Shown here in pieces: positions 1,451 through 60,235 of a DNA stretch of 64,000 bases; within the stretch, counting starts at the first letter, position 1, and each line of letters opens with the position of its first letter. A program made the position numbers and the translations under genes. This DNA comes from a virus. The notes below the pieces were generated by a model. The model made no database searches. It was given only the letters and a program-made list of their open reading frames with translations, and had not been told where the DNA came from. The stretch covers positions 2,724 through 66,723 of the IMG/VR virus record IMGVR_UViG_3300020147_000001, one strand, 5' to 3'.

Positions 1451-1469
1451 TCACAACAAAGGACACGCT

Positions 1470-1694
1470 ATGTCACGCAAGCTTCCAAACGCTATCCGCA
1501 CAGACAGAGACGAGCGAACCGGACGCCTGGACAAGCGCCTGCCTCGCGGTTTCCACCTCGCCTACTTCAAGAATCAATCCTATTTCGTGCGCAACGGGTA
1601 CGAGCTGCAGGAATGCCCGTACGAGCACAACGCCCACGTTGACAACTGCATGCGCTGCGCTCCGCTTTGGGGCGTGATTGCGGTGCAGTCATGA
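1470..1694 (+). CDS. hypothetical protein with CxxC
   Basis: ATG directly after the AAAGGACACGCT leader motif. Confidence 0.65.
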   Translation: MSRKLPNAIRTDRDERTGRLDKRLPRGFHLAYFKNQSYFVRNGYELQECPYEHNAHVDNCMRCAPLWGVIAVQS

Positions 1695-2454
1695 CCCCAG
1701 CACAAGAGCAAGCGGCAAGCGCCGCACGTCGTGCGTGCATTGAATGGCTCAAGAGCTACCCCGGTCCGACTCCGCCATCACAAGCGGCCGACGCCGCATG
1801 GCGCAAATGGTCCCAAGACCTACCCTATGCCCACGAAATAAAAAACGCATTCCTCGCCGCATGGCGCGCGCAGTGGGAGATCCGGTGAACCAATCGGACA
1901 AGCTAGACGCGATCGGCGGGCTTCTCTCAGAGAACGGCTGCGATTGCGACTGCGATCACTCCCAAGATGAGCACGATGCAGACTGCGCGCGGTGCCTCGC
2001 ATGCAGAATCACAATGGTAATCCTTGACCTCGACTACAGAGGAGGCCCGCTACCGTGAGCCTATCTCTCGACTCGAAAACGCTCGCGCCTCTGTTCAATC
2101 GCCTGGCCTGGCGCCTCTGTTCTAACCGCCACCTGGACGCCTCGGTCTACCTGCAGCACCGTGTGCAGCGCGTATGCGCTCACGAGTACGGCCCTACCCT
2201 CAACCTCGTGCGCGGGTGCTTCGCCTATTGCGAGCTATGCGGGCACGAAACAGAAATCAGCTACTGAAAGGATACGCCAGATGAAAACGTACATCGTCTA
2301 CGTAGACGGACTCGAAGTCCGCAAGATCAAAGCAGGAAACCACAACGCGGCCGAGAAGAAGGCTCAAAAGCTCTACCCCGCTCTACCCCGCCATCGCGTT
2401 TCAGTCGCATACACCGAAGTTTGACACCACACGCTCGCATAAAAGGACACGCTA

Positions 2455-2824: not shown

Positions 2825-2850
2825 ACCACACAACGAAAGGACACGCTAAA

Positions 2851-3727: not shown

Positions 3728-4048
3728 TTCACGAAAAGGGCACGCATCATGAGCACCGGATTTCCCAAGGTCTACAAGGCACGCGATAGCCAAGCATTCG
3801 AGGCACTCTACGCACGCAGCGCCAGCGCTCGGTCTGAAGTGCTGAAAGCCGAGGGATCGCAATCCATCCGAGACTTCACCGAACACATGGAAAACGCAAT
3901 CAGCGACCTAGAGCTCAGCCTTGCGCACGCTCGCGAGGCACTGGCCATCGCCAAAGATTGAGGCCCGGGTTCCCATATCCGCGGTGACCCGAACACGTGC
4001 CGCGGCACGGTTGCGCAACTCGAACACTCTACACGAAAGGACACGCTC

Positions 4049-5662: not shown

Positions 5663-6917
5663 GCTAACACCCCAACCCACCCACGCAAAGGAAGCCGACC
5701 ATGATGACACCAGAGGAACTCGCCAAGGCCGCGTCTAACCACGCGCTGCAGACCGCGCTCTTGGATGCGTACATCGAAGACGAATGCGGAGACATCGACA
5801 CGGAGCTGGACCGCGTGGTCGACATGCTTCGCCGCGACTCGGCGCATGAGCTTCTGTGCGGACGCGATGCCGAGAGGCGCTTGATCGACAACATCATTGC
5901 GCGCCTAGAGCGGCACGAACATCGCTGACAATCACCCCTGAAAGGACGCGCTACATGAACAACAACAACAAGCTGTGCTTGACCCTGATCGTCATAGAAT
6001 TGATGACGCTCGGGTATTTGATCTACGACGAAATGGTCGCAAACCCTCAACGGCGAGCTTCGGGCGAATCACTCGAGCGTGGCAGAGCCAACTTAGGCCG
6101 GTACATCCAGGACCGGACCACGCGCTAGGAAAGTACGTAGGGGCCGCGTGCACCATGCGCGCGGCCCCCGTCCATCAGGAACGACCAGATAGGAGCTGAG
6201 AATAGCACGTGGCCATCGAGACGATCGAAAACCCTAAGACATCTTTCGTCTACAAGTGGCATTGCGCCTATACGCCTTGCAGCGCCTATCTGCGCGGCAC
6301 CATCGGTGACGCGGTTGCGCGTGGCCTGGACTCCATCTCCTTCGACTGCCCGCACTGCGCGCGGCGCACCATCGTTCCCTTGAGGCCCGAGCAGTGACCA
6401 AGCGCAAACCTCACCCGCTGGAAGGCACGCTTGAACGCTCGCGTGTAGCGCTCGATGAGGGCGCGCTAGTCCACAACGCGATCTACGTCATCCGGAACGC
6501 GTGGGGTCGCATCGGGCTCGCGCGGCGCGAGGCAGAGGCACTCGTTGCGGCCTACTTCAAAGCAAAGTCCGCGCTCTACGAAGCGCAGATCGAGGCACAG
6601 CGGTCGGCCGATGATGCAGCCGCACAGCGTGCCCTCGTTGAACTCTTGACTAACGAGTTGGACCAAAAACAGAAGGGACACAGCTAACATGACTACACCG
6701 AAACCGCTTTACGAACGCGCCCGCGAAGCGGGCGCTGAAGCCCGCGCTAAGCAGCTAAGCGAACTGTCAACCGCAGTTTTCACGCACGAGCAGGCCTTGA
6801 ACGGGTTCGTTCTCTTCATGTGCAAAGAGCAACCGGGCACCGAAGCCGCTTGGCGTCAGTTCGCTGTCGCCTTCGACCCACGAAACAAGCGCTGGGCGGA
6901 AGGGAACGACGACTGAC

Positions 6918-11817: not shown

Positions 11818-12327
11818 TGCGCACCGCCAAGCCGCGCGCTTGCATGTAGGGAAACTCCGGTGTACGACACCCTTGAAGAAAGCATTTCAGTCTCCATATT
11901 GGGCGCTGAGCCGGGACAAGCCGACGCCCTGTTTGTTGTGACGGATTGAGAAAGCACAGACGGCTGTGGGCCGTCTGTGACTTGGTTGCTGGAACCCAGC
12001 GGCTGAACAACTGTTTTGCTCGCTGACACATCGTGGGTAAGTGGCTTGTCGGGGTGCTGCCTGACAAGCCACGCGTTCTTTCGACGAAGACAAAAAGTCA
12101 TTCAATCCTCCTATTGCGTGGGTGGGTTGGTGAGACAGACCGCAAAAACGACACCGCCGCCGTCAGCTGCACAGGCTCTAGTAGGGGTACTCAGAGCGCA
12201 GAAGACGGCGGCGTAGTCGTAACCGAGAGCAAACAGCGCGCGGGGGACTCCGCGACAGGGCTGAGAGCGCTCAGCGCAAATTGCAGGGGGATGCAAGTTG
12301 CGGTCAGTGCCTCGGCCCCGAATGACT

Positions 12328-14661: not shown

Positions 14662-14737
14662 ACGTCAGTAGCTCAGTTGGTAGAGCACCGGATTCCAAAT
14701 CCGGCGGCCGGCGGTTCGAGTCCGCCCTGACGTGCCA
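14662..14737 (+). tRNA. tRNA-Trp (CCA)
   Basis: Full cloverleaf: acgtcag/ctgacgt acceptor stem, ccgga-TTCCAAA-tccgg anticodon arm, GGTTCGAGTCC T arm, encoded CCA. Confidence 0.95.
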
Positions 14738-14775
14738 CCCGTTGTGAAACCCCTACCACAAAGGACACGCTAGAC

Positions 14776-22900: not shown

Positions 22901-22940
22901 TTCCTCGTGTCTTTTCTCATCCCGGAGAAAAGTGGTTTGC

Positions 22941-23573: not shown

Positions 23574-23678
23574 CGGATGGCCCGAGCCGGCTGCATGCGG
23601 TGGGCGTTTTGCGATTGCTTGAGCTTGTCCGAGCACTTCAGCGAGTCGTTTCTCATCCCGGAGAAACTAGGCCGTACC

Positions 23679-31177: not shown

Positions 31178-33852
31178 CGCTTGATCCTTTGCGGGGTAAC
31201 GTCCTCGTAGCTGATCGAAAACCCCTCGAGTTTCGGAGGCTGCAGGGTTGTGGCGTCGGGTGACCCGCTGATCACGAGCTCGGGCGCGATGCTGTTTGCC
31301 ATGGCAGGCCACGCGCGCGGAATCGTGAAGCCGACTCGGCTCATCTCCATCTGGTTGCCAGTGGGGCTGCTCGTGGGAATGACCCGTGTGCCAGCGCTGA
31401 TCGCCTGCGAGCGCAGCTCACAGGTGTAATTGGTCTCTTGCCAAGGCGCCGAGAACGAGAGGTTGATGTCGCGCCAGTGCTTCAGCGAGTAGGAACCGTT
31501 CACGCCGTAGAAGGGCTGAAAGCGCGCGGTCAGGCCTTCATAAGCGCCGAAATTGGCGATCTGATCGGCGATGAGGTCGCGTCTACCAGCGTACAGCATG
31601 AACATGCGCTGCAGTGACTGGTTGTACGTCGCAAGCGACGGCACCTCGCCTGGATGGTAGCTCGGTACGCGCACCATCCACGTGTCGGTCTTGACGTTGT
31701 AGACCCAGATCTTCCCGAAGACAGTTCCGGAGTTGTGCCGATACCGGATCCAGATCTCCTCGTTGGCGTTGTCGACGGCCATCCACGGCCACGTCGTGCT
31801 GATGCCGTTTGGACTGATGTCGCTGGACCAACTCTTGTTGGGCAACATGAACTGCGCATCGGAGTCGGGCCATCCCGTAGGATTGATGCGCCCGTCCGAA
31901 AGCTGGCGAACCGTACCTTCGCTGCTGATCGCAACGACGCCGCGGTTTGTGAGCGCGTACACGCTGTCGCGAAACACCACCGCGCAGTCGGGGTTCGTGA
32001 TGATGAGACTGGGGTCTACCGGGTCGATCACCCAGTCATATTCTTCGCCCACCGAGCCGCCGGCGCCGCTCAACCGGAAGAGCCCATCGCTGCAGAAAAA
32101 CCAGAGGCAGTCACGCGTCGCGATGATCTTGTAGATCTCACCCTGGCCGCAGAACGCGTAGTTCGAGGGCGGGCAGTTTTCCGGCTCGTTGTTCTCGCTC
32201 CACGCAAACCCGTTCTTCTGCTGGCTGCCTTCTTCGGTGTGAGCCGTTGCGTTGAGCTCCGGCAGGTACGGCGAGAAGTTTTGCCCGTTCGTCGCGCGCA
32301 GCGTGATCGGGCTGTTCGTGCGCATGCGGATCACAAGGCCGCCCGTGGGCACGAAGTTGGGATAGACGCCTGCAGGGTTTTCGGTCGTGATCGGCTCGAG
32401 GCCTACAGCCGCAACGTCGAGCTGCGTGTTGAGGTTCGAGGTGTTGCCGAAAAAGAGCTGCGAAACAAACGACTGCGGAGACTCTGTGGCAGACACGTTG
32501 AGCCCGTTGAGCTCGATCCGGTCGAGGACATCCACGCGCACGTTGCCGCTGTATGAGCTGTTGACAGCGCCCGTGATCGTAGTCGCTCCCACCGACACAA
32601 CGGTGTTGTTGGGCGTCACGAGCAAGCCGCTGTCGACGCGATAGACGTTGAAGGTCTGTCCAACAACAACGCCGTACGTGTTCGGGAGCCCCGTGACCGT
32701 AGGGCTACCGCTCGTCGCTGTTTGCCCAGTGGTCGTGTAGCGAATGCCGATGCCCTGGGTCAGCACGTAATAGCCCGCTGTGGCGAAAGGCATGAATCCC
32801 CAGTAGTAGGGGTTCAGAAGCGTGAACGTCGCCGGATCCCAACGGTTGGCATAGAAGGCGTGACCTCGAAAGGTCGCGCATGTTTTCGCTGGTGTTGGCG
32901 GGAGCGGGAGCGCTGACGCGCCCCCGACTGAGACGTTTGTCAGAAGCGCTTCACCGAGCGTCGCCGGCAGCGTGGTGTCTGACGAGAGGTTGAAATACGT
33001 TGCCCAGTTCGCCGCCCAGCGAACCGTTTTCGAGAGGTAGAAGCTGCTGCCGGTGCTGATCGGAAGGTATTTGTTGGAGACGCTGTCGTACCCAACGCTC
33101 TGCGCGCGCGTGCGATAGATATCGAGGTGGTGGCTGTAGTAACCGCTGCTTAGTGTGAGGTCGGCCTTTGTGATCCACTGCGAATGGACCTGCGGCAATG
33201 TCGTGCTGAGGTTTGCGTAGTCGTACGGAACAGCCGGAGGGCTGACGAGCTCATACCCATCCCTGTGCACCATGCGCAGAACGGACGTGGCCGAGAAGTG
33301 CTGGTTGGGGCCGAGGTACGCGGGGTCATCTGCCAAGCCGCTGAACGCGTTGCGGTCGTACAGGATCGTCTGGTAAACGCCGCAGTTTCGCGGTCCTTCC
33401 AGGCCGTTCATGATGCCATCGGCGTCTTCGAACACGTCGAACGCAAAGGACCGCACAGCGCCCGTGATGATCACGCGGTTGCGCGCGAACACGATGCCCG
33501 TGCGCGCGTCGTTCGTGATGTAGCTGTTCCACGGTGCGGGAATATCCCGCTTGAGCGTGATGTACCCGCTGAAGGATGTGGAGCATGTAACGCAGAGCTG
33601 CCACGTGCCGAGCGCGGTGTGCTCTACAAGGAAGATCGTGTACGGGCCTTCCGAGAGGGCGTAGATGCCGCCCACGAGGTTGCCGTTGAGGAAGTCGGTG
33701 TTCGCCAGCTCGAACTTTCGTACCGGCTCCAAGACGCCAAACGAGCGAATCGCACCGTTGATCGCGTAGGAGAACGCGCCCGGAGGGAACTGCCCGACCT
33801 TGTTCGGCTCGGTGATAAGGCCTTGCGGCTTCACCGCGATTTGATCGCTCAC
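31174..33852 (-). CDS. putative tail nozzle / tail tubular protein B-like
   Basis: 892 aa, beta-propeller-like (FRGHAFYAN, FAWSENNEPE, WVYNVKTDTW); follows the adaptor gene. Confidence 0.7.
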   Translation of the reverse strand: MSDQIAVKPQGLITEPNKVGQFPPGAFSYAINGAIRSFGVLEPVRKFELANTDFLNGNLVGGIYALSEGPYTIFLVEHTALGTWQLCVTCSTSFSGYITLKRDIPAPWNSYITNDARTGIVFARNRVIITGAVRSFAFDVFEDADGIMNGLEGPRNCGVYQTILYDRNAFSGLADDPAYLGPNQHFSATSVLRMVHRDGYELVSPPAVPYDYANLSTTLPQVHSQWITKADLTLSSGYYSHHLDIYRTRAQSVGYDSVSNKYLPISTGSSFYLSKTVRWAANWATYFNLSSDTTLPATLGEALLTNVSVGGASALPLPPTPAKTCATFRGHAFYANRWDPATFTLLNPYYWGFMPFATAGYYVLTQGIGIRYTTTGQTATSGSPTVTGLPNTYGVVVGQTFNVYRVDSGLLVTPNNTVVSVGATTITGAVNSSYSGNVRVDVLDRIELNGLNVSATESPQSFVSQLFFGNTSNLNTQLDVAAVGLEPITTENPAGVYPNFVPTGGLVIRMRTNSPITLRATNGQNFSPYLPELNATAHTEEGSQQKNGFAWSENNEPENCPPSNYAFCGQGEIYKIIATRDCLWFFCSDGLFRLSGAGGSVGEEYDWVIDPVDPSLIITNPDCAVVFRDSVYALTNRGVVAISSEGTVRQLSDGRINPTGWPDSDAQFMLPNKSWSSDISPNGISTTWPWMAVDNANEEIWIRYRHNSGTVFGKIWVYNVKTDTWMVRVPSYHPGEVPSLATYNQSLQRMFMLYAGRRDLIADQIANFGAYEGLTARFQPFYGVNGSYSLKHWRDINLSFSAPWQETNYTCELRSQAISAGTRVIPTSSPTGNQMEMSRVGFTIPRAWPAMANSIAPELVISGSPDATTLQPPKLEGFSISYEDVTPQRIKR

Positions 33853-40928: not shown

Positions 40929-43223
40929 TTAGACGGGCGCCCCAGCTGGAGGCGTGCTCGGCTCAGGCAGCGGCGTGCCCGTCGCGTGGACCTGTCCACC
41001 CTGTCCGCCTTGCGCCTGGGCCTGGTCGCTCGGCATGGCTTGCGGGACCGCCGGCGGGGCCTGCTGGCCTGCAACCGGCTGGCCCCCACCACCTGCGGGG
41101 CCGCCGCCTGGAGTGGCACCTGGGCCACCAGGCGGCATGAGACTCGGGTTGTTGGGCCCGGTCGCGAGCTGGCCCGTCGCCATCATGAACTCGAACATCA
41201 TGTTGCCGCGCGGCGCCATCGGGTTCGGGTAGATCGGCGGTGGCGGCGGCAGTCCCACAAACCCGGCACTCACCGGATTCATCTGCAGGTACTGCTGCAT
41301 GTGGTCCTTCATATGCAGTCGGATCCTTTGGATCGCCTGCATGTCCGGCTTTTCCGACGCCATCAGCTGCTCAAGCATGCTGAAGTGCATCGGGTAGTGC
41401 TTGAACGGGTCGTCCGCCTCGTTCACGTAGATCGGCGCTTCGCCCGTCACAAGGAGCTCGTTTTCCTTGCGGATGAGCTGCTCGCAGCTGTTTTCGGTCT
41501 TGAGCCAGCGCGTCGTATTGCCCGTGACCACCATCTCGTAGGCGGCAGCTCGATCCTCCGGCGGCATCTCACGCAGCGCGGTGATGAGCTGCAAGCGGCC
41601 CGCGGTGGACTGCATGAGCGGCGAGACCTGTTCGATCTCGATGCGCTGGATTCCGCTGAGGTCTTCCTTGGTGAACTCTGCGACGTACGAGCGCTGCTCG
41701 ATGCCGGCGATGTCGACGAGGAACGGCGTTTCGCCGTAGCGTGTGATGAGGTCTAATAGGATCTGCGCGCCTTCGATGCGGAACTTGCGCGCGGCGTCTT
41801 GGCGGAACGACTGGTAGCGAATGGCGATGCTGTCGAGCAGCGCATTCATCTCCCCCGATCGGACGTTTGGATCTGGGTCGCCGCGACTCGCAGCGTTCTG
41901 ACCCGATACTGTGTCCAGCATCTTGTGCAGATAGCTTTTGAGGTCCGGGAGCGTTGCTGGAACAGCAGCAAGCTGCACTGCCCGCGGCATCTGAGCATTC
42001 GGAGGAACATAGAACGCAGTACCTTGCGCAATCGCATCGATTGTTACCTCTGTGCCCTTCTCGATCGCGATGCTCTGCCGACCAAAGGTCGCGTAGTTCT
42101 GCATCTCGTCGCTGTTCACCTGGTTCAGCGCTTGCTGAATCGCGATGAGGTCCCACGCGTCGGCGTAGCCGAAAGTGCTTTCGATAAACTTGCCGCTCTG
42201 AATGACAGCGATCGGCAAGCCGCGCTTACGCGGGCTCGGGCCGTCCCAGAGGATGATGTCGTTGACCAGCATCACGTAGCGGCCTTCGGGCACCGCGGCG
42301 CAGCGCCGGTGGTAGAAGTGCTTGACGGTGAGCTGGTCTTTCGAGGTGTAGTACATCTCCTCGAGACGAAAGAGCGTGCCGAAGTCGTACTGGTCGAAGT
42401 CAGTGCGCGCAGCCAAGAGCTGCTCTTTGTGCTGCGGGAAGTTGGCGATCAGGTTCCAGCGGTTATCGAGCTCGCGTACAAGGCGCCACTGGTGCTCGCC
42501 GGAGATGCGCGTTTCTTGAACGAGCGTCCACGGGTAGACGAGCGACACGATGGGCTCGCCGCTTTTTTCGATCGTGTAGTGCTCGGTCGGCGTGCCGTCC
42601 TCGAGCGTCACCGGGCGCGGCACTTTCATGTCGTCGCCGCCCAAAAAATCCCAGCGGTAGTGCGTACCGGCGAGCCCAAACACGCCGTCGCCCTCGGCTG
42701 CTTCCATGTCGAGGGGCGCGGAGTAGCGCTTGTACAGCGCGTTGATGATCTTGTCGGTGAGCAGCGACTTCGCGATGGAGCGGTGGTCGCTGTTGTTCAC
42801 GAGCGCACGAAACGCCGCTGGTTCTCCGAGAGCCAGCGACGTTTGGTGCCGGATGTACGGGCGAATGAGATTGAGATGGAAGCGAATCAGCTCCAGCTCA
42901 TTGCCCGTAAATCCGATGCTTTGTGTAGCAAAGTCCCGAAGGTCATCAGGTGTCAAGCCATGGTGTGCGGCATAGGCCACCACCCACATGGGGAGCACGC
43001 CGCGGTTACGCGCGCTCTCGAAGTAGTTGTGCTCCTTGGCGCAGATCTCCGAGATGAAGTCGGGACCCGTCTTGCGCGCCCAATACACGGTCGCCGGGTC
43101 GATCTCCGGCTCGTCGACGGCCGCGAGCGGGTCGTCTTCAACAGCGAGTGGATCGGCAAGCGGATCGGCGAACGGTTCTGAGAAGGCGTCGAGTGGTTGT
43201 TCTTCTACTTCTTGCGGGAGCAC
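40929..43223 (-). CDS. portal protein
   Basis: 764 aa; NLIRPYI and LDTVSGQNAASRG..SG motifs; Pro/Gln tail; synteny. Confidence 0.85.
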   Translation of the reverse strand: MLPQEVEEQPLDAFSEPFADPLADPLAVEDDPLAAVDEPEIDPATVYWARKTGPDFISEICAKEHNYFESARNRGVLPMWVVAYAAHHGLTPDDLRDFATQSIGFTGNELELIRFHLNLIRPYIRHQTSLALGEPAAFRALVNNSDHRSIAKSLLTDKIINALYKRYSAPLDMEAAEGDGVFGLAGTHYRWDFLGGDDMKVPRPVTLEDGTPTEHYTIEKSGEPIVSLVYPWTLVQETRISGEHQWRLVRELDNRWNLIANFPQHKEQLLAARTDFDQYDFGTLFRLEEMYYTSKDQLTVKHFYHRRCAAVPEGRYVMLVNDIILWDGPSPRKRGLPIAVIQSGKFIESTFGYADAWDLIAIQQALNQVNSDEMQNYATFGRQSIAIEKGTEVTIDAIAQGTAFYVPPNAQMPRAVQLAAVPATLPDLKSYLHKMLDTVSGQNAASRGDPDPNVRSGEMNALLDSIAIRYQSFRQDAARKFRIEGAQILLDLITRYGETPFLVDIAGIEQRSYVAEFTKEDLSGIQRIEIEQVSPLMQSTAGRLQLITALREMPPEDRAAAYEMVVTGNTTRWLKTENSCEQLIRKENELLVTGEAPIYVNEADDPFKHYPMHFSMLEQLMASEKPDMQAIQRIRLHMKDHMQQYLQMNPVSAGFVGLPPPPPIYPNPMAPRGNMMFEFMMATGQLATGPNNPSLMPPGGPGATPGGGPAGGGGQPVAGQQAPPAVPQAMPSDQAQAQGGQGGQVHATGTPLPEPSTPPAGAPV

Positions 43224-43255
43224 CTCAGGAGGCCTTGCTCATCCCGGAGCAGGTT

Positions 43256-44748: not shown

Positions 44749-44792
44749 CAGGTTTGCATCGTTCTCATCCCGGAGAATCTAGCTTTGGTGTT

Positions 44793-44869
44793 TGGCTGTG
44801 GAGGCTGGATTCGAACCAGCGGACTCCGACTTAACAGGCCGGCGCTCGTACCGCACGAGCAACTCCACA
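44793..44869 (-). tRNA. tRNA-Asn (GUU)
   Basis: tgtggag/ctccaca acceptor stem, ccggc-CTGTTAA-gtcgg anticodon arm, GGTTCGAATCC T arm, G73-CCA; D-loop atypical. Confidence 0.85.
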
Positions 44870-47470: not shown

Positions 47471-47816
47471 CCTCCGTCACAATCTCATCCCGGAGCTTGT
47501 GTGGTTGGTTGTGTCGCGTCGCGATGGTGTGACGCGCAGTCTGCAAAAGCGCTGCCAAGGTGCGGCTGCACTCGGCGTAGAACGCGTTGCGCGGTCGCGC
47601 GTAGCTCACCGTCGCGCTCAGGTCCACGTCCGCTTCGACCTGGATAAGTCGAAGCTTGAGCTCGTGGTTGCCCTTGCCCGGCACCGCGACAAAGCTCCAC
47701 GGAAACCTGTGGCCGCGGTCATCAAACACCTGGTTGGCAATCCCGACCGCGGTCGGCTGAGTCAGTGCGATCATGTTACGCAATCCTTGTAGCACGGGGT
47801 TGATACTACGGGACAT
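47460..47816 (-). CDS. hypothetical protein upstream of terL
   Basis: 118-aa coupled ORF; no clear TerS motif. Confidence 0.55.
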   Translation of the reverse strand: MSRSINPVLQGLRNMIALTQPTAVGIANQVFDDRGHRFPWSFVAVPGKGNHELKLRLIQVEADVDLSATVSYARPRNAFYAECSRTLAALLQTARHTIATRHNQPHKLRDEIVTEVGT

Positions 47817-52783: not shown

Positions 52784-52830
52784 CTTCGCGTGTCCTTTCT
52801 CGTGGTTACAGGTCGAAACTCGAAACAGCT

Positions 52831-55406: not shown

Positions 55407-56970
55407 GGGATCACCAAAAACCGACGCATGTTGGAGCCCTTCTGCGCGGCCTCCTCGTCAAGGTACACTGACCCACTCACCCACTTGGCCCCAGGGACCA
55501 CGGGGTGATCGGGGTCGACGAGCACCCACTCGACCGAGTGCATCGGAGATGACCTTGCAAGCACGACAGGCTGGCACACATACCCAGAATCACGGGTCTT
55601 CGTCAGGAACGTGTGCCAGCGCTTGGCCTCGAGCCTGTCGCAAAACACAGCAACCTGCTCCACATAACCCTTCTTCTGAAGAGCGTCTGGCTTGTAGAAC
55701 GCGTAGTACCGCGGCTCTTCCTTGCCCCCAAGCTCGCACACCTCGCACTTGGGGATCTGAAAGAGCACGGTCATGAGCCGCTTGCACTTCGGGCAAGAAG
55801 TCATCGCAAACGCCCTTCCCGCTGCATGACAGCATAACGCGCGCGCAGCGGCGCAGGCTGGAGATCCGCCAGCGCAAGACCAAACTGCTTGGCCATGGCC
55901 ACGACAACATCCATGGACCCCTGCATCCGAAACAGTGAATCGAGGAGTGTCGTAGCAAGGTCTTTGCCACGGCCATCTCTGATGAGCGCCTGGCTGGCCT
56001 CGACGCTCACGTGATGCGCAACAGCAAACGCGTCCAAGACGCGCTCGCGAAACGCGTCTTCCAGCGCGCGCTTGGTTTCGGTCACAACATCGAAATCTTT
56101 TTGGTCAAGCATCGGTCCGTCTCCTTCTGTCGCTGTAGCCATCGACGCAGCAAGGTCGCCGCTTCGACTCGGATGGGCTTGCCGCCGATGGCGCGCATGT
56201 AGGTTGCGTATCCGATGCCCGAATGCAGCCAGGGCTTCGAATAGTAGAGCTCGGACGGCATCGCCTCGATCTCATCAGGGGTCAGCACCTCCCAGGCCTT
56301 GGCCGGCTTCACAAAACGCCTCCGAGCCGCCCGAGCATCGCGAAAAAGCCGACAATGCCTGCGACGAACGCAAACCAGGCTTTGCCCGCCTGCGATGTGT
56401 CAGAAAACTTCGACACGTCGTGCACGCCCCATCCGATAACGACAAGCGAAAGCAAAAGCACTCCCATCTCTAGGTTCATGTGTCCTCGTCTTCCTCGTCT
56501 TCCTCGTCAAACAATCGACACACCCTACGCAGCTCGTGCACGAACATCCACTCGGCACCCGCAAACATCGCGGCATACACGAACCCACCAACTTCATTGG
56601 CGATGAGTGGCCCGGCCATCCCTACCGCAATCCAAAACGCTGTTTTCACGGGCGCGACCCTTTCTCTAAACAACCGTGGTGCACGAAGCCGTCATCCCGG
56701 ACCGCGCCTCGTGCACCACGCCCTACAACCCTACTCTTCGGCCTTGGGGGGTTTGACCGGCATAGGGTCGAGCTGAATATCCTGCGCCTCCGACATGCGT
56801 TTGATCTGCTCCAGCGCCTTGTGCATACGCTGCGTCGCAAGCGAAATCAAAAGCGCGTAGTCCTCTGCGCTCGCGTTCACAAGGCAGCCTGCGCCCTCAA
56901 AGAGCTGTCGTATCTTCTTGTCTCGAAAGTCAGCCACGTTCGCCCCTCTTTCCCGTTGCTCGTGTTCTAG

Positions 56971-57339
56971 CTAACGATGCATCCACGCACGCGCCGCGTC
57001 GTGACGCTCGTCCCAGGCGCGTTGTTCCTGCAAGTCCTCTTTGCTGCGCGCGCCCTGCAAAGGCTCTCGGTGGTAGGAGTTGCGCCATTGCGCCGCGCGG
57101 TCGTACGAGCCTTGTCGCTCACGCAGGTGGTCGTACTCCATGTCGTCGCCGCCACGACGGTAGAACGACTCGTCGTAAGGGCCTCTGCTGCCACCCCTGC
57201 CAAAGCCGCTCGCCCAATCGCGAGCGCCAGCAAACCCAGCGCCGCCTCCAAAAGCAGAGTAAGCCACAAACGCCAACGCGATGATCACCACAACGGCAAT
57301 CATGCGAAGCACTCCGCCGAGCTTCGACTTCTCTTCCAT
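56971..57339 (-). CDS. membrane-anchored hypothetical protein
   Basis: N-terminal TM helix; AAAGGACACGCTC leader. Confidence 0.65.
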   Translation of the reverse strand: MEEKSKLGGVLRMIAVVVIIALAFVAYSAFGGGAGFAGARDWASGFGRGGSRGPYDESFYRRGGDDMEYDHLRERQGSYDRAAQWRNSYHREPLQGARSKEDLQEQRAWDERHDAARAWMHR

Positions 57340-57551
57340 GAGCGTGTCCTTTCGACAGAACCGCGGATCAGAAAGAAGCCGACCGACTCACTCGATGACG
57401 GTACAGCTCGCCCCCATTGGACGGGTTGCCCGACCCGATCGGCTTCTGTCTGACTCGCGGTCTAACGCCCCGCCCCGTGGTTTAGCGTGTCGGGGGCAAA
57501 GCTAGTTCAGGCTTTCTATCACAGGCCGATCGGCTGTCCAGTCGAGAAAGC

Positions 57552-57648
57552 AAAAATGTGTTCGTGTCTCCAGGTCTAGCTGTTTGAGCATCTTGCTCCG
57601 GAAGGACACGCTAAGTCTAACGACCGGGATGCCCGAGACACGAACACG
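57552..57648 (-). ncRNA. predicted ~97-nt small RNA antisense to the repeated leader motifs
   Basis: 14-bp terminal stem (57557-57570/57635-57648) followed by U5; promoter placed immediately upstream. Confidence 0.55.
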
Positions 57649-57654
57649 TCGGGA

Positions 57655-57683
57655 AACCTACCACCTACGTTGTGATCTCGCCA
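57655..57683 (-). promoter_or_regulatory. putative extended -10 promoter for the sRNA
   Basis: TGGCGA-N17-TAGGTT with TGn; predicted start about 57648-57649. Confidence 0.45.
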
Positions 57684-57704
57684 CGATTTCGTGCGCATAG
57701 CAGT

Positions 57705-57733
57705 TTGCAAAAGCGGTTACGTCAGTGCATGGT
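57705..57733 (+). promoter_or_regulatory. putative promoter for the ro60 operon
   Basis: TTGCAA-N17-CATGGT. Confidence 0.35.
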
Positions 57734-57775
57734 GGCCGACGTGACGCATTTGCAATTCGGCAGGTGGTCACGTGT

Positions 57776-57856
57776 GCTCCGCGGCAGCGCCTCATGAGTG
57801 CATCACACGATCACACGTTTTAGGTCCTACTTGAACGTGTAACGCTGCCGCGGGGC
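57776..57856 (+). ncRNA. structured 5' leader (or additional small RNA) upstream of ro60
   Basis: gctccgcggcagcg/cgctgccgcggggc 14-bp stem enclosing an acacgtt/aacgtgt hairpin. Confidence 0.45.
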
Positions 57857-57878
57857 GCTGCTTCTTCACTGTACCGCC

Positions 57879-59576
57879 ATGGACAAGACCCTGTTCAACA
57901 CGCGCACGGGCCACGCGCCCGTTGCCGACACCAAGAACCTCGCCGGCGGCAAAGCTTACTCGCGCGACCCACGCGAAGCGCTCGCGCAGCTCGCGGTCAC
58001 AGGCTGCTTCGGCGACACGTACTACGCCTCCGCGCACGAACAGCTCGACGAGATCAAGGCCGTGCTCGCGCTGTGCTCTCCTGACTTCGTCGCCAAGTGC
58101 GCGATCTACGCGCGCGAGCGCGCCAACATGAAGGACATGCCCGCGTTCTTGCTGGCGCACCTTACGGCGCGCTGCGGCGCAGAAGCTGTCGCACAAGCCA
58201 TAGCGTTCCCGGCACTACGCGCCTTCCACGCAGCGTTTCCGCGCGTCATCGACAACGGCACCATGCTGCGGAAGTTCGTGCAGGTGGTGCGCTCGGGCGC
58301 GGTCGGTCGCAAGAGCTTCGGCACAAGCGTCCGCAATCGGATCCGCACATGGTTGCTCGCCCAGTCAGACTGGCGGCTCTTCAAAGACTCGGTCGGTGAC
58401 CAGCCGTCGCTCGCGGACGTGATCAAGATGGTGCGCCCGAACCCTGTACGCGGCTCCTCGCGCTGGGCGCTGCACGAGTACATCCTTGGCAAGAAGCTCA
58501 CCGAGGAGCACAACCTCGTGCTTCCACGCAGCGTGCTGGAGTACGAATGCTTCAAGCAGTTACAGCTGCAGGGCAAGGCCGAAGTCTTGGCTGTTCCCGA
58601 TGTCGACTTCCGCATGCTCGACAGCCTGAAGCTGAGCGACGCGCAGTGGAAGGAGGTCTTTCGCCGCGCGCCGTGGTCCATGACACGACAGAACCTCCTC
58701 ACCGCAGAACGACACGGCGTGCTCAAAGACCCGGAGATGGTCAACATCATCGCCGAGCGGCTGCGTAGCCCGACACTCGTGCGTAAGTCGCGTGACTTTC
58801 CCTACACGCTCCTGAGCGCATTCATCGCTGCGCGCGACGCGGGCTTGCCGAATGCGATCACCAACGCCCTGCAAGACGCGATGGAGATCGCGACCGAGAA
58901 GGTGCCAACGTTCGGCGCCGGCACAGTGATCTGCGTCGACGTGTCCAGCTCCATGCAGATGACGCCCGTGACCGGCGGACGCGGCAAACCAACCAAGGTG
59001 AGCTGCGTCGAGGCGGCGGCGCTCATCGCGGCTACGCTCGTCCGCAAGAACCCAGACGCGCTGCTCCTGCCATTCAGCGACCGACTGAACCTGGAGTACA
59101 AGGTCAACTCGCGCGACTCGGTCATGACGATCGCGCAGCAAATCTGCGCCCTGCCCTCAGGCGGGACGGACTGCTCGCTGCCGCTGTGGCACCTCAACGG
59201 ACGCAACGCGCGCCACTGGGCAGCTGTAGGGATCCGTCAGATTGTGATGATCAGCGACAATGAGTCCTGGTCGCAGCCGGCGAAATTCGCGAGCTACGGC
59301 ACCCATGAATTCTACCGCCGACAAGGAACGCCCTTGGCGGAAGCGTGGGCAGAAACCAAAAAACGCAACCGCGACGCCAAGCTCATCTGCATCGACCTGC
59401 AGCCCGCGATCACGACGCAGGTCAAAACGGCAAGCGATCAGCTCAACGTCGGTGGCTTCACCGACGACGTTTGGCGCGTCGTACAAAGCTTTATCGAGAG
59501 AGGGTCGACTTCGTGGGTCGATGAGATCGAACGTATCGATCTGCACGCGCTTGACGCGCCCGCGCACGAAGCCTAA
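57879..59576 (+). CDS. rsr: Ro60/Rsr RNA-binding protein (TROVE + vWA)
   Basis: NLAGGKAY, LAQLAVTGCFGDTYYAS, YARERANMKDMP; vWA MIDAS DVSSSM, GGTDCSLP, ISDNESW, LICIDL, VGGFTD. Confidence 0.95.
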   Translation: MDKTLFNTRTGHAPVADTKNLAGGKAYSRDPREALAQLAVTGCFGDTYYASAHEQLDEIKAVLALCSPDFVAKCAIYARERANMKDMPAFLLAHLTARCGAEAVAQAIAFPALRAFHAAFPRVIDNGTMLRKFVQVVRSGAVGRKSFGTSVRNRIRTWLLAQSDWRLFKDSVGDQPSLADVIKMVRPNPVRGSSRWALHEYILGKKLTEEHNLVLPRSVLEYECFKQLQLQGKAEVLAVPDVDFRMLDSLKLSDAQWKEVFRRAPWSMTRQNLLTAERHGVLKDPEMVNIIAERLRSPTLVRKSRDFPYTLLSAFIAARDAGLPNAITNALQDAMEIATEKVPTFGAGTVICVDVSSSMQMTPVTGGRGKPTKVSCVEAAALIAATLVRKNPDALLLPFSDRLNLEYKVNSRDSVMTIAQQICALPSGGTDCSLPLWHLNGRNARHWAAVGIRQIVMISDNESWSQPAKFASYGTHEFYRRQGTPLAEAWAETKKRNRDAKLICIDLQPAITTQVKTASDQLNVGGFTDDVWRVVQSFIERGSTSWVDEIERIDLHALDAPAHEA

Positions 59577-59584
59577 AAAAGAAC

Positions 59585-59657
59585 CGTGTCTGAATGCAGT
59601 GCGGGATTACATCGGATTTGAACCCAAAAGGATCTCGCGCGCTCCCGGTCGGGCACG
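59585..59657 (+). ncRNA. Y RNA-like unit 1 (minimal, no tRNA body)
   Basis: Terminal stem cgtgtctga/tcgggcacg; shared GAATGCAG, TTACATC and CCGGT motifs. Confidence 0.7.
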
Positions 59658-59821: not shown

Positions 59822-59959
59822 TGCTGCTGAATGCAGAGGGGCATTACATCGAATTGTAATCGAGAGGTCGTCGGTTCGAGTCCGACCGGCTCCCGCGAGG
59901 GAGCCGTAGCTCAGGTGGTAGAGCGCTAAAGTATGTCCTTCGATCACCGGTCAGTGGCG
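59822..59959 (+). ncRNA. Y RNA-like (YrlA-type) unit 3, with a permuted tRNA-Thr(UGU)-like body
   Basis: tgctgctga/tcagtggcg stem; ATTGTAA loop, T arm, acceptor stem closed by GCGA, TAGCTCAGGTGGTAGAGC D arm. Confidence 0.85.
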
Positions 59960-60015
59960 CTAACGTTTTCACGTCCGTTCGGCAGTTGAAACCTCGTGCT
60001 TCATGTCACACCCCC

Positions 60016-60079: not shown

Positions 60080-60222
60080 GGTCACGAATGCAGCAAGGAT
60101 TACATCGCTTTGGGAGCCGGATGTCGTGGGTTCGAATCCCACACCCCTGGCCTACACCTGACAGGGGTTAGCTCAGCCTGGATAGAGCGCCGTAACGTAT
60201 CTTTGCGATTCCGGTCGTGACC
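60080..60222 (+). ncRNA. Y RNA-like (YrlA-type) unit 4, with a permuted tRNA-Pro(UGG)-like body
   Basis: ggtcacga/tcgtgacc stem; TTTGGGA loop, T arm, acccctg/caggggt acceptor stem, TAGCTCAGCCTGGATAGAGC D arm. Confidence 0.85.
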
Positions 60223-60235
60223 GTTGTTTTTGTAG

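Follow-up and report, generated by a model that had tools for sequence, protein, structure and literature searches.

The window analysed here is a 64,000-nucleotide (nt) stretch of phage DNA, corresponding to bases 2724–66723 of a 66,723-bp IMG/VR record (IMGVR_UViG_3300020147_000001) with direct terminal repeats; DNA of this phage occurs in soil metagenomes. Within it, a gap of 539 nt separates ro60, on the plus strand, from a divergent gene at 56971–57339 on the minus strand, and the gap holds three structured stretches, namely (a) at 57350–57466, (b) at 57552–57647 and (c) at 57774–57858. Stretch (b), referred to below as the element, is the subject of this report. It lies 232 nt upstream of ro60 on the opposite strand, and only mechanical open reading frames (ORFs) of 30–45 aa overlap 57552–57683, in agreement with an initial annotation, made from the letters alone, that described an ORF-free element divergent from ro60. 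With moderate confidence, and on the strength of a comparison with three related phages (G002, G003 and G004), we regard the element as an antisense small RNA (sRNA) gene of a small soil-phage clade, the product of which would pair with the leader of the neighbouring gene. The parts of the element are listed here, including a complement to a repeated ribosome-binding site (RBS) motif.

57552–57647, minus strand: predicted sRNA of 96 nt, which runs from the base of the stem through the U5 run (from folding, and from syntenic homologues in G002, G003 and G004)
57655–57663, minus strand: P1, an extended -10-like box, TGgTAGGTT, 7 nt 5′ of the stem base (read from the sequence)
57635–57647, minus strand: 5′ arm of the closing stem, GUGUUCGUGUCUC (13 Watson-Crick pairs)
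57558–57570, minus strand: 3′ arm of the closing stem, GAGACACGAACAC (13 Watson-Crick pairs)
57552–57556, minus strand: U5 run, a terminator-like tail (read from the sequence)
57602–57615, minus strand: antisense segment CUUAGCGUGUCCUU, a complement of both the RBS motif AAGGACACGCUA(AG) and the leader hairpin (d) loop
57624–57631, minus strand: CAUCCCGG, complementary to the tip of a late hairpin, probably by coincidence (missing from the RNAs of all three relatives)

The closing stem joins 57647–57635 to 57570–57558 through 13 Watson-Crick pairs on the minus strand, while 15 pairs are available on the plus strand; the 14-bp stem of the initial annotation is thus present, its length being approximate. 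The U5 tract was correctly placed on the minus strand (57556–57552), as was the extended -10 box said to set the start at the stem base. When the 57545–57660 stretch was folded, the minus strand gave -41.2 kcal/mol (z -2.80, with 1 of 200 shuffles equally good) and the plus strand -42.3 kcal/mol (z -3.76, 0 of 200). For the 96-nt sRNA itself, the minimum free energy was -41.3 kcal/mol on the minus strand versus -37.7 kcal/mol on the plus strand. A check for terminators with G+C-rich hairpins found a stem followed by U4–U9 in all four phages, the hairpin enclosing 35–65 nt; a consensus terminator scan, with loops of 3–8 nt, did not call the element. A search of 57250–57950 against all 4227 Rfam families at E up to 10 returned only four microRNA-type matches (E 1.4–8.4), which are attributable to chance, and none to C4, YrlA or Y_RNA. 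Contigs from two other DNA runs (X4 and X6) carry an identical element sequence. Those of metatranscriptome run X5 cover 57002–57257, 57866–58322 and other stretches, with none spanning 57270–57791, and such contigs are uninformative on small RNAs, ends and strand.

Four complete related genomes were compared, namely that of the window phage (G000) and those of its three relatives. G002 (63.5 kb, with terminal repeats) was found through a search of IMG/VR with the Ro60 protein, and G003 (75.0 kb) and G004 (74.5 kb) through a search with the late hairpin sequence described below. Each of the three is syntenic with the window phage, and the phages share a 608-aa protein at 73–76% identity and Ro60 at 39–50%. 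Nucleotide comparison brought no relatives to light: blastn of 57300–59600 against 50,697 phage records gave no match, and blastn of the 541-nt intergenic region against G001 and G002 gave only chance matches of 14–19 nt. Scans for further relatives, by single-protein and alignment searches of IMG/VR with Ro60, by alignment scans with the 608-aa protein in IMG/VR (4 loci) and JGI metagenomes (3 loci), and by a hairpin pattern scan (12 stretches), yielded only G002–G004 and two short fragments, L070 and L073.

In all four phages, on the strand opposite ro60, a GTGGTA box is followed after 6–7 nt by the closing stem, an interior of 35–65 nt and a run of U4–U9. Next, 3′ of the U-run, come a promoter-like site, a leader hairpin and a gene for a single-pass membrane protein of 43–122 aa. 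The promoter-like site, P2, reads TTGACR-N16/17-TGnTAGGTA or CATGTA in the relatives (the -35 of the window phage being TGGACA). The closing stems have 13, 14, 17 and 21 pairs (13 in the window phage) and differ in sequence, the relatives' U-runs are U9, U4 and U5, and the predicted RNAs are 80–96 nt long. MAFFT alignments of the four elements were out of register for the stems; stems and loops were therefore compared by script. The element is conserved as anatomy and not as sequence.

This anatomy is specific to the locus. A descriptor scan of the four genomes for a stem of at least 11 pairs followed by a U-run gave 44 matches, and only four of these had TGnTA just upstream: one per genome, in each case the element. 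Extended to about 310 kb of other loci (Ro60 phage loci, late-hairpin loci, L070 and L073) at a threshold of at least 10 pairs, the scan gave 12 rows with TGnTA, with 10–11 pairs and no similarity, which were judged to be chance; neither L070 nor L073 gave a row.

The comparison also fixes the strand. The stems of the relatives contain 3, 2 and 4 G·U pairs, and these nine would turn into A·C mismatches if the RNA came from the plus strand. The minus strand also folds better than the plus in each of the four phages (-41.3/-37.7, -45.7/-36.1, -37.9/-36.0 and -45.6/-37.7 kcal/mol), and on these two grounds the minus strand can be considered settled. In G002–G004 the element is separated from ro60 by one or two small ORFs. 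The window phage retains no remnant of these intervening genes (best E 1.0) and has no minus-strand ORF upstream of the element, and so the element is free-standing there and not merely the terminator of a coding gene.

The features that follow the element on the minus strand are those with which its RNA would interact.

57513–57540, minus strand: P2, promoter-like TGGACA-N16-(TGA)TAGAAA for the downstream gene (read from the sequence; not called by the consensus scan)
57467–57502, minus strand: leader hairpin (d), the loop of which carries GACACGCUAA (57491–57482), complementary to the sRNA (10-nt Watson-Crick run, equalled by 3 of 2000 shuffles)
57350–57466, minus strand: long imperfect leader hairpin (a), found in this phage only, its apex replaced in a natural variant
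57340–57351, minus strand: AAGGACACGCUC, the copy of the RBS motif before the downstream gene, to which the sRNA is complementary at 11 of 12 nt
56971–57339, minus strand: downstream gene, encoding a 122-aa single-pass membrane protein (43–99 aa in relatives)

A long-range helix between the interior of the element and the leader of the next gene first became apparent in folds of G003 and G004. Pairing was scored with Watson-Crick pairs only, by the length of the longest run that the RNA interior could form with the 70 nt following the P2 -10 box. The cognate runs were 10, 6, 11 and 8 nt for the window phage, G002, G003 and G004, compared with 5–7 nt for the 12 non-cognate pairs, and shuffled interiors equalled the observed run in 3, 900, 3 and 39 of 2000 trials, respectively. 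On the leader side, the partner falls within the apical loop of the first hairpin in every phage, and in G002–G004 the RNA partner takes in a 6-nt apical loop (GUCGCG, GUCGCA and GUGCAA). G003 and G004 differ on both paired sides: in the former the leader CUGCGACAC matches GUGUCGCAG of the sRNA, and in the latter GUUGCAC matches GUGCAAC. In the RNA of the window phage, UUAGCGUGUC pairs with GACACGCUAA in the loop of hairpin (d), which spans 57467–57502, and the overlapping UAGCGUGUCCUU pairs with the RBS motif. The complementarity itself is thus phage-specific on direct comparison, and such differing sequences with matching partners are the main evidence for an RNA–RNA contact. Matched complementarity cannot separate pairing in trans from pairing inside a read-through transcript.

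The downstream protein ends in VMHR in three of the four phages and is 43, 45, 99 or 122 aa long (43–45 aa in G003 and G004); Pfam and PHROG searches with it returned no family. A natural variant from run X3 has the apex of hairpin (a) swapped (57383–57428), with its stem and the sRNA gene unchanged. With respect to promoters, the sites at 57513–57540 (minus), 57655–57663 (minus) and about 57704–57733 (plus) have in common a -10 region that is unusual and takes the form TGnTAGGTA/TAGGTT/TAGAAA or, before ro60, CATGNN. The promoter-like sites of the relatives have TTGACA -35 boxes, and none of the clade's sites was called by the standard sigma-70 consensus scan.

The RBS complement is a second striking property of the element in the window phage. 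The sequence UAGCGUGUCCUU, complement of plus-strand 57602–57613, is an exact 12-mer within the RNA gene. Allowing up to one mismatch, AAGGACACGCTA occurs nine times in the window versus 0.14 expected, and none of 100 shuffles reached nine; the 12-nt complement to the RBS motif noted by the initial annotation is real and far beyond what chance would be predicted to give. All eight copies outside the element are in the sense orientation, 0–4 nt before the ATG of ORFs of 57–208 aa. Together with the copy before the membrane-protein gene, these are:

1459–1470, plus strand: RBS motif copy before a 74-aa ORF
2443–2454, plus strand: RBS motif copy before a 106-aa ORF
2837–2848, plus strand: RBS motif copy before a 99-aa ORF
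4037–4048, plus strand: RBS motif copy (1 mismatch) before a 139-aa ORF
5942–5953, plus strand: RBS motif copy (1 mismatch) before a 57-aa ORF
14761–14772, plus strand: RBS motif copy before a 208-aa ORF with a PHROG match to Mu Gam-like end protection
52786–52797, minus strand: RBS motif copy (1 mismatch) before a 115-aa ORF

Apart from the Mu Gam-like match, the motif-bearing ORFs are without a named function. No exact copy of AAGGACACGC occurs in G001 or G002, it is not among the repeated 10-mers of G002–G004, and the relatives' RNAs have no complement to any repeated RBS-type start-site motif. Since the motif is missing from the relatives, a multi-gene regulon is not the conserved function of the element and is possible in this phage only. 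As to the sequences around the motif, a C/A-rich, G-poor tract precedes every copy, and the leaders before the ORFs at 1470 and 2851 (1425–1470 and 2800–2848, both plus) are alike over about 35 nt upstream of it, with the pattern AUCCGAGC.AUUCAG..CACA.AAC.A.

The initial annotation had also pointed to CAUCCCGG, complement of plus-strand 57624–57631, as a match to the tip of a hairpin before late genes. The complement is present, and its suggested role as a second target site did not survive comparison. In the window, CCGGGATG has 12 copies versus 1.99 expected (0 of 100 shuffles reach 12); eight of these lie on the minus strand, 15–19 nt before ORFs of 65–764 aa, and seven of the eight have 2–6 flanking pairs. 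Hairpins with CUCCGGGAUGAG precede late ORFs in all four phages, at 9–77 nt and mostly 9–18 nt in the relatives, and none of the relatives' three RNAs has CAUCCCGG or even ATCCC. As the late hairpins are conserved without a conserved complement, the CAUCCCGG match is probably a coincidence. The chance of such an 8-mer match in a 65-nt interior is about 0.003–0.005 at the genome's own 8-mer frequency, so that a gain specific to this lineage is not fully excluded. Co-variation of the sRNA with leader motifs in related phages, put forward earlier as a check, holds for the loop in the neighbour's leader; the RBS motif and the late complement are both absent from the relatives. The late hairpin is itself a recurrent feature, with a UCUC/GAGA-type stem and a CGGGAU loop, spread over 22918–47493 (minus) in the window and kept in all four phages. 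Examples are found at 22918–22925, 23654–23661, 43240–43247, 44766–44773 and 47486–47493, and the ORFs that follow include those of 608 and 764 aa.

On the other side of the element, ro60 has probable RNA partners of its own.

57879–59576, plus strand: ro60 (Pfam vWA_Ro60, E 2.9e-13; TROVE, E 3.2e-5)
59824–59960, plus strand: YrlA-like Y RNA 1, which follows ro60 on its strand (E 5.5e-7; its 39.5 bits fall short of the gathering score of 69 bits)
60081–60224, plus strand: YrlA-like Y RNA 2, which also follows ro60 on its strand (49.9 bits, E 5.2e-10; both T-arm and D-arm align)

The two YrlA-like RNAs were missed by the default scan because they fall below the gathering score. The YrlA model finds similar matches after ro60 in G003 and G004, one in G004 attaining the gathering score (69 bits); no YrlA follows ro60 in G002, where the best match (E 0.85) sits roughly 3 kb upstream of the gene and on the opposite strand. 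According to passages of PMC4201824, the Y RNAs of bacteria and phages are encoded close to Ro60 and share its DNA strand, an arrangement that the pair downstream of ro60 matches; a GNCGAAN0-1G motif near the 5′ end is also described there. These two RNAs are likely the true Ro60 partners. The element shows no covariance-model match to YrlA and lies on the wrong strand relative to ro60 in all four phages; GNCGAAN0-1G is not found near its 5′ end (5′ arm GUGUUCGUGUCUC), the only similar sequence being CACGAA in the 3′ arm. A further structure of the region is the leader at 57774–57858 (plus), with counterparts in loci L003 (about 2906–2980), L057 (about 1364–1462) and L058 (about 1390–1465), so that each of the four phages has one 20–55 nt upstream of the ro60 start. 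This leader has a closing stem of 16–18 bp that differs in sequence, a common YRUGAGY box and, in the window phage and G002, a loop containing GGUCC, and could be an autoregulatory site or a further RNA bound by Ro60.

The antisense reading of the element can be set out as a series of steps. A host-type extended -10 promoter would start transcription at the base of the long closing stem, and the resulting RNA of 80–96 nt (about 96 nt in the window phage) would end at the U-run after the stem. A 3′ end formed by an RNA's own stem and U-run is typical of chaperone-dependent sRNAs. An exposed part of the interior would then pair with the mRNA of the downstream membrane-protein gene, at the apical loop of the first hairpin of its leader; this gene has its own putative promoter, P2. 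In this phage, the same 12–14 nt would also cover the Shine-Dalgarno sequence and spacer (AAGGACACGCUA) of the membrane-protein gene, as well as those of seven further small genes that are probably early, where the likely effect would be to block ribosome binding. The sequence comparisons themselves establish the anatomy with its conservation, the strand and the matched complementarity. Production of the RNA, its pairing in trans and repression are the parts of this scheme that we infer. The proposal in the initial annotation of one RNA that switches translation across the genome is possible, if for this phage only. A fuller version, in which the RNA would be a master riboregulator that occludes the Shine-Dalgarno-spacer motif of about eight early genes, kisses the late CGGGAU loops via CAUCCCGG and times an early-to-late switch in translation, appears improbable.

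Several observations weigh against the antisense reading. The complementarity in G002 is only 6 nt long and is not significant alone, given the 900 of 2000 shuffles noted above. If G·U pairs are allowed and the whole leader is used, the 11-nt run of the window phage is equalled by 73 of 500 shuffles, and a genome-wide target search with G·U pairs gave runs of 12–16 nt, no longer than those of shuffled interiors, with which runs of 12–19 nt arise. RNAduplex energies for the eight motif start regions (-26.9 to -35.3 kcal/mol) are likewise not distinct from those of 402 ORF starts (mean -26.3, sd 4.6); neither duplex energy nor complementarity across the genome discriminates in these G+C-rich genomes. 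Within the predicted fold, the GUGUCC at the centre of the antisense segment is paired (unpaired probability 0.02–0.09), leaving UAGC and UU unpaired. With respect to expression, a simple sigma-70 consensus scan of 56900–58000 on both strands called no promoter because P1 is without a -35, and the final T is missing from the P1 -10 hexamer in three of the four phages. The element starts 30–45 nt after an upstream ORF in G002, G003 and G004, where a plain terminator fits too. Finally, the RBS motif is confined to this phage, and the comparison covers four genomes, hence few independent events.

One alternative is a large structured intrinsic terminator or insulator that ends leftward transcription before P2 and has no role in trans, which we consider a credible, if unlikely, explanation. 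It would account for a stem and U-run directly before P2 in all four phages and for their position 30–45 nt after small ORFs in G002–G004. It would leave unexplained the complementarity to the leader loop, the exact 12-nt RBS complement and the fixed spacing of the GTGGTA box; moreover, the window has no minus-strand gene upstream to terminate, an interior of 35–65 nt is unusual and the consensus terminator scan was negative. The element might also act in cis as a leader or attenuator, with transcripts from P1 either stopping at the U-run or reading through, in which case the interior would pair with the leader hairpin or RBS of the same molecule and set translation of the membrane protein. 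The tandem layout of element and target on one strand, 60–260 nt apart, and the long-range helices in the folds suit such a leader, and the covariation does not separate cis from trans pairing. We nevertheless think it decidedly unlikely, for a promoter-like P2 intervenes between element and target in all four phages and seven distant RBS copies are out of reach in cis.

A link to the Ro60 ribonucleoprotein, which the initial annotation had drawn from the neighbouring gene, finds little encouragement, and binding of the element by phage Ro60 through its long terminal stem as a Y-RNA-like partner seems very improbable. In size and shape the element (80–96 nt, a terminal stem of 13–21 bp and an interior of 35–65 nt) falls within the general description of Y RNAs (80–130 nt, long terminal stem, large internal loop) given in parts of PMC4201824; it also lies within 0.25–0.75 kb of ro60 in all four phages and has a semi-conserved stem base (GUYCR...YGRAC). 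Against this, the window phage, G003 and G004 have RNAs of the YrlA type, with T and D arms, 3′ of ro60 and on its own strand, whereas the element is on the opposite strand, without a tRNA-like module, an Rfam match at E up to 10 or GNCGAAN0-1G near its 5′ end. Adjacency to ro60 carries little weight, since synteny extends throughout the four phages. The complementary segments could alternatively be DNA sites, namely inverted operator copies around P2 for a phage-specific DNA-binding protein. Operators of this kind would also be expected to differ between phages, and the G003 segments are inverted copies over about 24 bp that flank P2; yet the eight other motif copies are all sense and directly before start codons, which points to use at the RNA level, and the segments fall in predicted RNA hairpin loops in all four phages, making the operator explanation highly improbable. 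Transcription of the plus strand into a decoy or sponge with sense copies of the RBS motif and CCGGGAUG, also raised in the initial annotation, is exceedingly improbable. The 116-nt window stretch does fold about equally well on that strand (-42.3 versus -41.2 kcal/mol), but the nine G·U pairs in the relatives' stems become A·C mismatches, the U-run and the conserved box exist on the minus strand only, the plus strand is antisense to coding genes in the relatives, and plus-strand CCGGGAUG is outside the context of a late-type hairpin, with 0 flanking pairs.

Phage RNAs known to control genes of their own phage through short, non-overlapping complementarity are few, and c4 of P1 and P7 is the classic one. 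The c4 gene precedes its target and shares its orientation. As described in passages of PMC12197685 and PMC8201110, c4 is a 77-nt RNA that blocks translation by means of short complements around the RBS of a phage mRNA; these stretches are thought to be in loops, and P1 and P7 each have a specificity of their own through differences between the two phages. The element resembles it in that its 12-nt complement of AAGGACACGCUA matches eight start sites, 0–4 nt before the ATG, and c4 is, by analogy, its closest working counterpart. There are also differences. The element has no Rfam C4 match (57250–57950, E up to 10) and appears from its sequence to have its own promoter-like box and U-run, whereas c4 is processed from an operon transcript; c4 targets the icd-ant antirepressor operon, while the likely target of the element is a small membrane protein without a known family, and the target motif is repeated at eight start sites in this phage. 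A new family of phage antisense sRNAs, outside Rfam and with a c4-like action, is probable on these sequence comparisons.

Other known systems are more distant. YrlA (RF02553) shares with the element its size, long terminal stem, large interior and ro60 neighbour, and differs in strand, in its T/D module, in having GNCGAAN0-1G near the 5′ end and in the model match, all of which the element lacks. Among type I toxin-antitoxin systems, IstR-1/TisB is a pair with a non-overlapping antitoxin RNA. The element would similarly be a small RNA beside a gene for a small single-pass hydrophobic protein (43–45 aa in G003 and G004) and complementary to its leader, and a type I reading is possible for those two proteins by analogy. 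In contrast to such systems, the protein has 99–122 aa in G002 and the window phage, the arrangement is tandem and not divergent or overlapping, and seven further genes of the window phage carry the target motif. The OOP RNA of lambda and the sar RNA of P22 both arise by overlapping transcription. Like the element as read here, they are phage-encoded RNAs that regulate genes of their own phage by base pairing, OOP with cII mRNA and sar, tabled as 'trans', with ant mRNA, according to parts of PMC12197685. They differ from it in that its complementarity spans 6–14 nt and its targets do not overlap. Literature searches, which did not target this clade (known from metagenomes alone), returned no description of such an element.

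A few other RNA features of these genomes are worth recording. The tRNA genes at 14662–14734 (plus, 72.8 bits) and 44796–44869 (minus, 53.4 bits) are the sole matches in the window at the Rfam gathering score. At 12151–12214 (minus) in the window, 33493–33557 (minus) in G003 and 42903–42967 (minus) in G004, a long, conserved G+C-rich stem, ACGCCGCCGUC...GACGGCGGCG, encloses a CCCCU-containing loop and is followed by a T-run; it could represent a terminator or another small RNA.

If the antisense reading is true, the element represents a new sRNA family in uncultured soil phages, outside Rfam, in which the pairing sites are already marked out by compensatory changes that occur naturally between relatives. 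The YrlA-like pair, probably the partners of the phage Ro60, has now been located alongside it. With its target sequence at the start sites of about eight genes in this phage, the RNA would, if functional, control a rare example of an sRNA regulon inside a virus.

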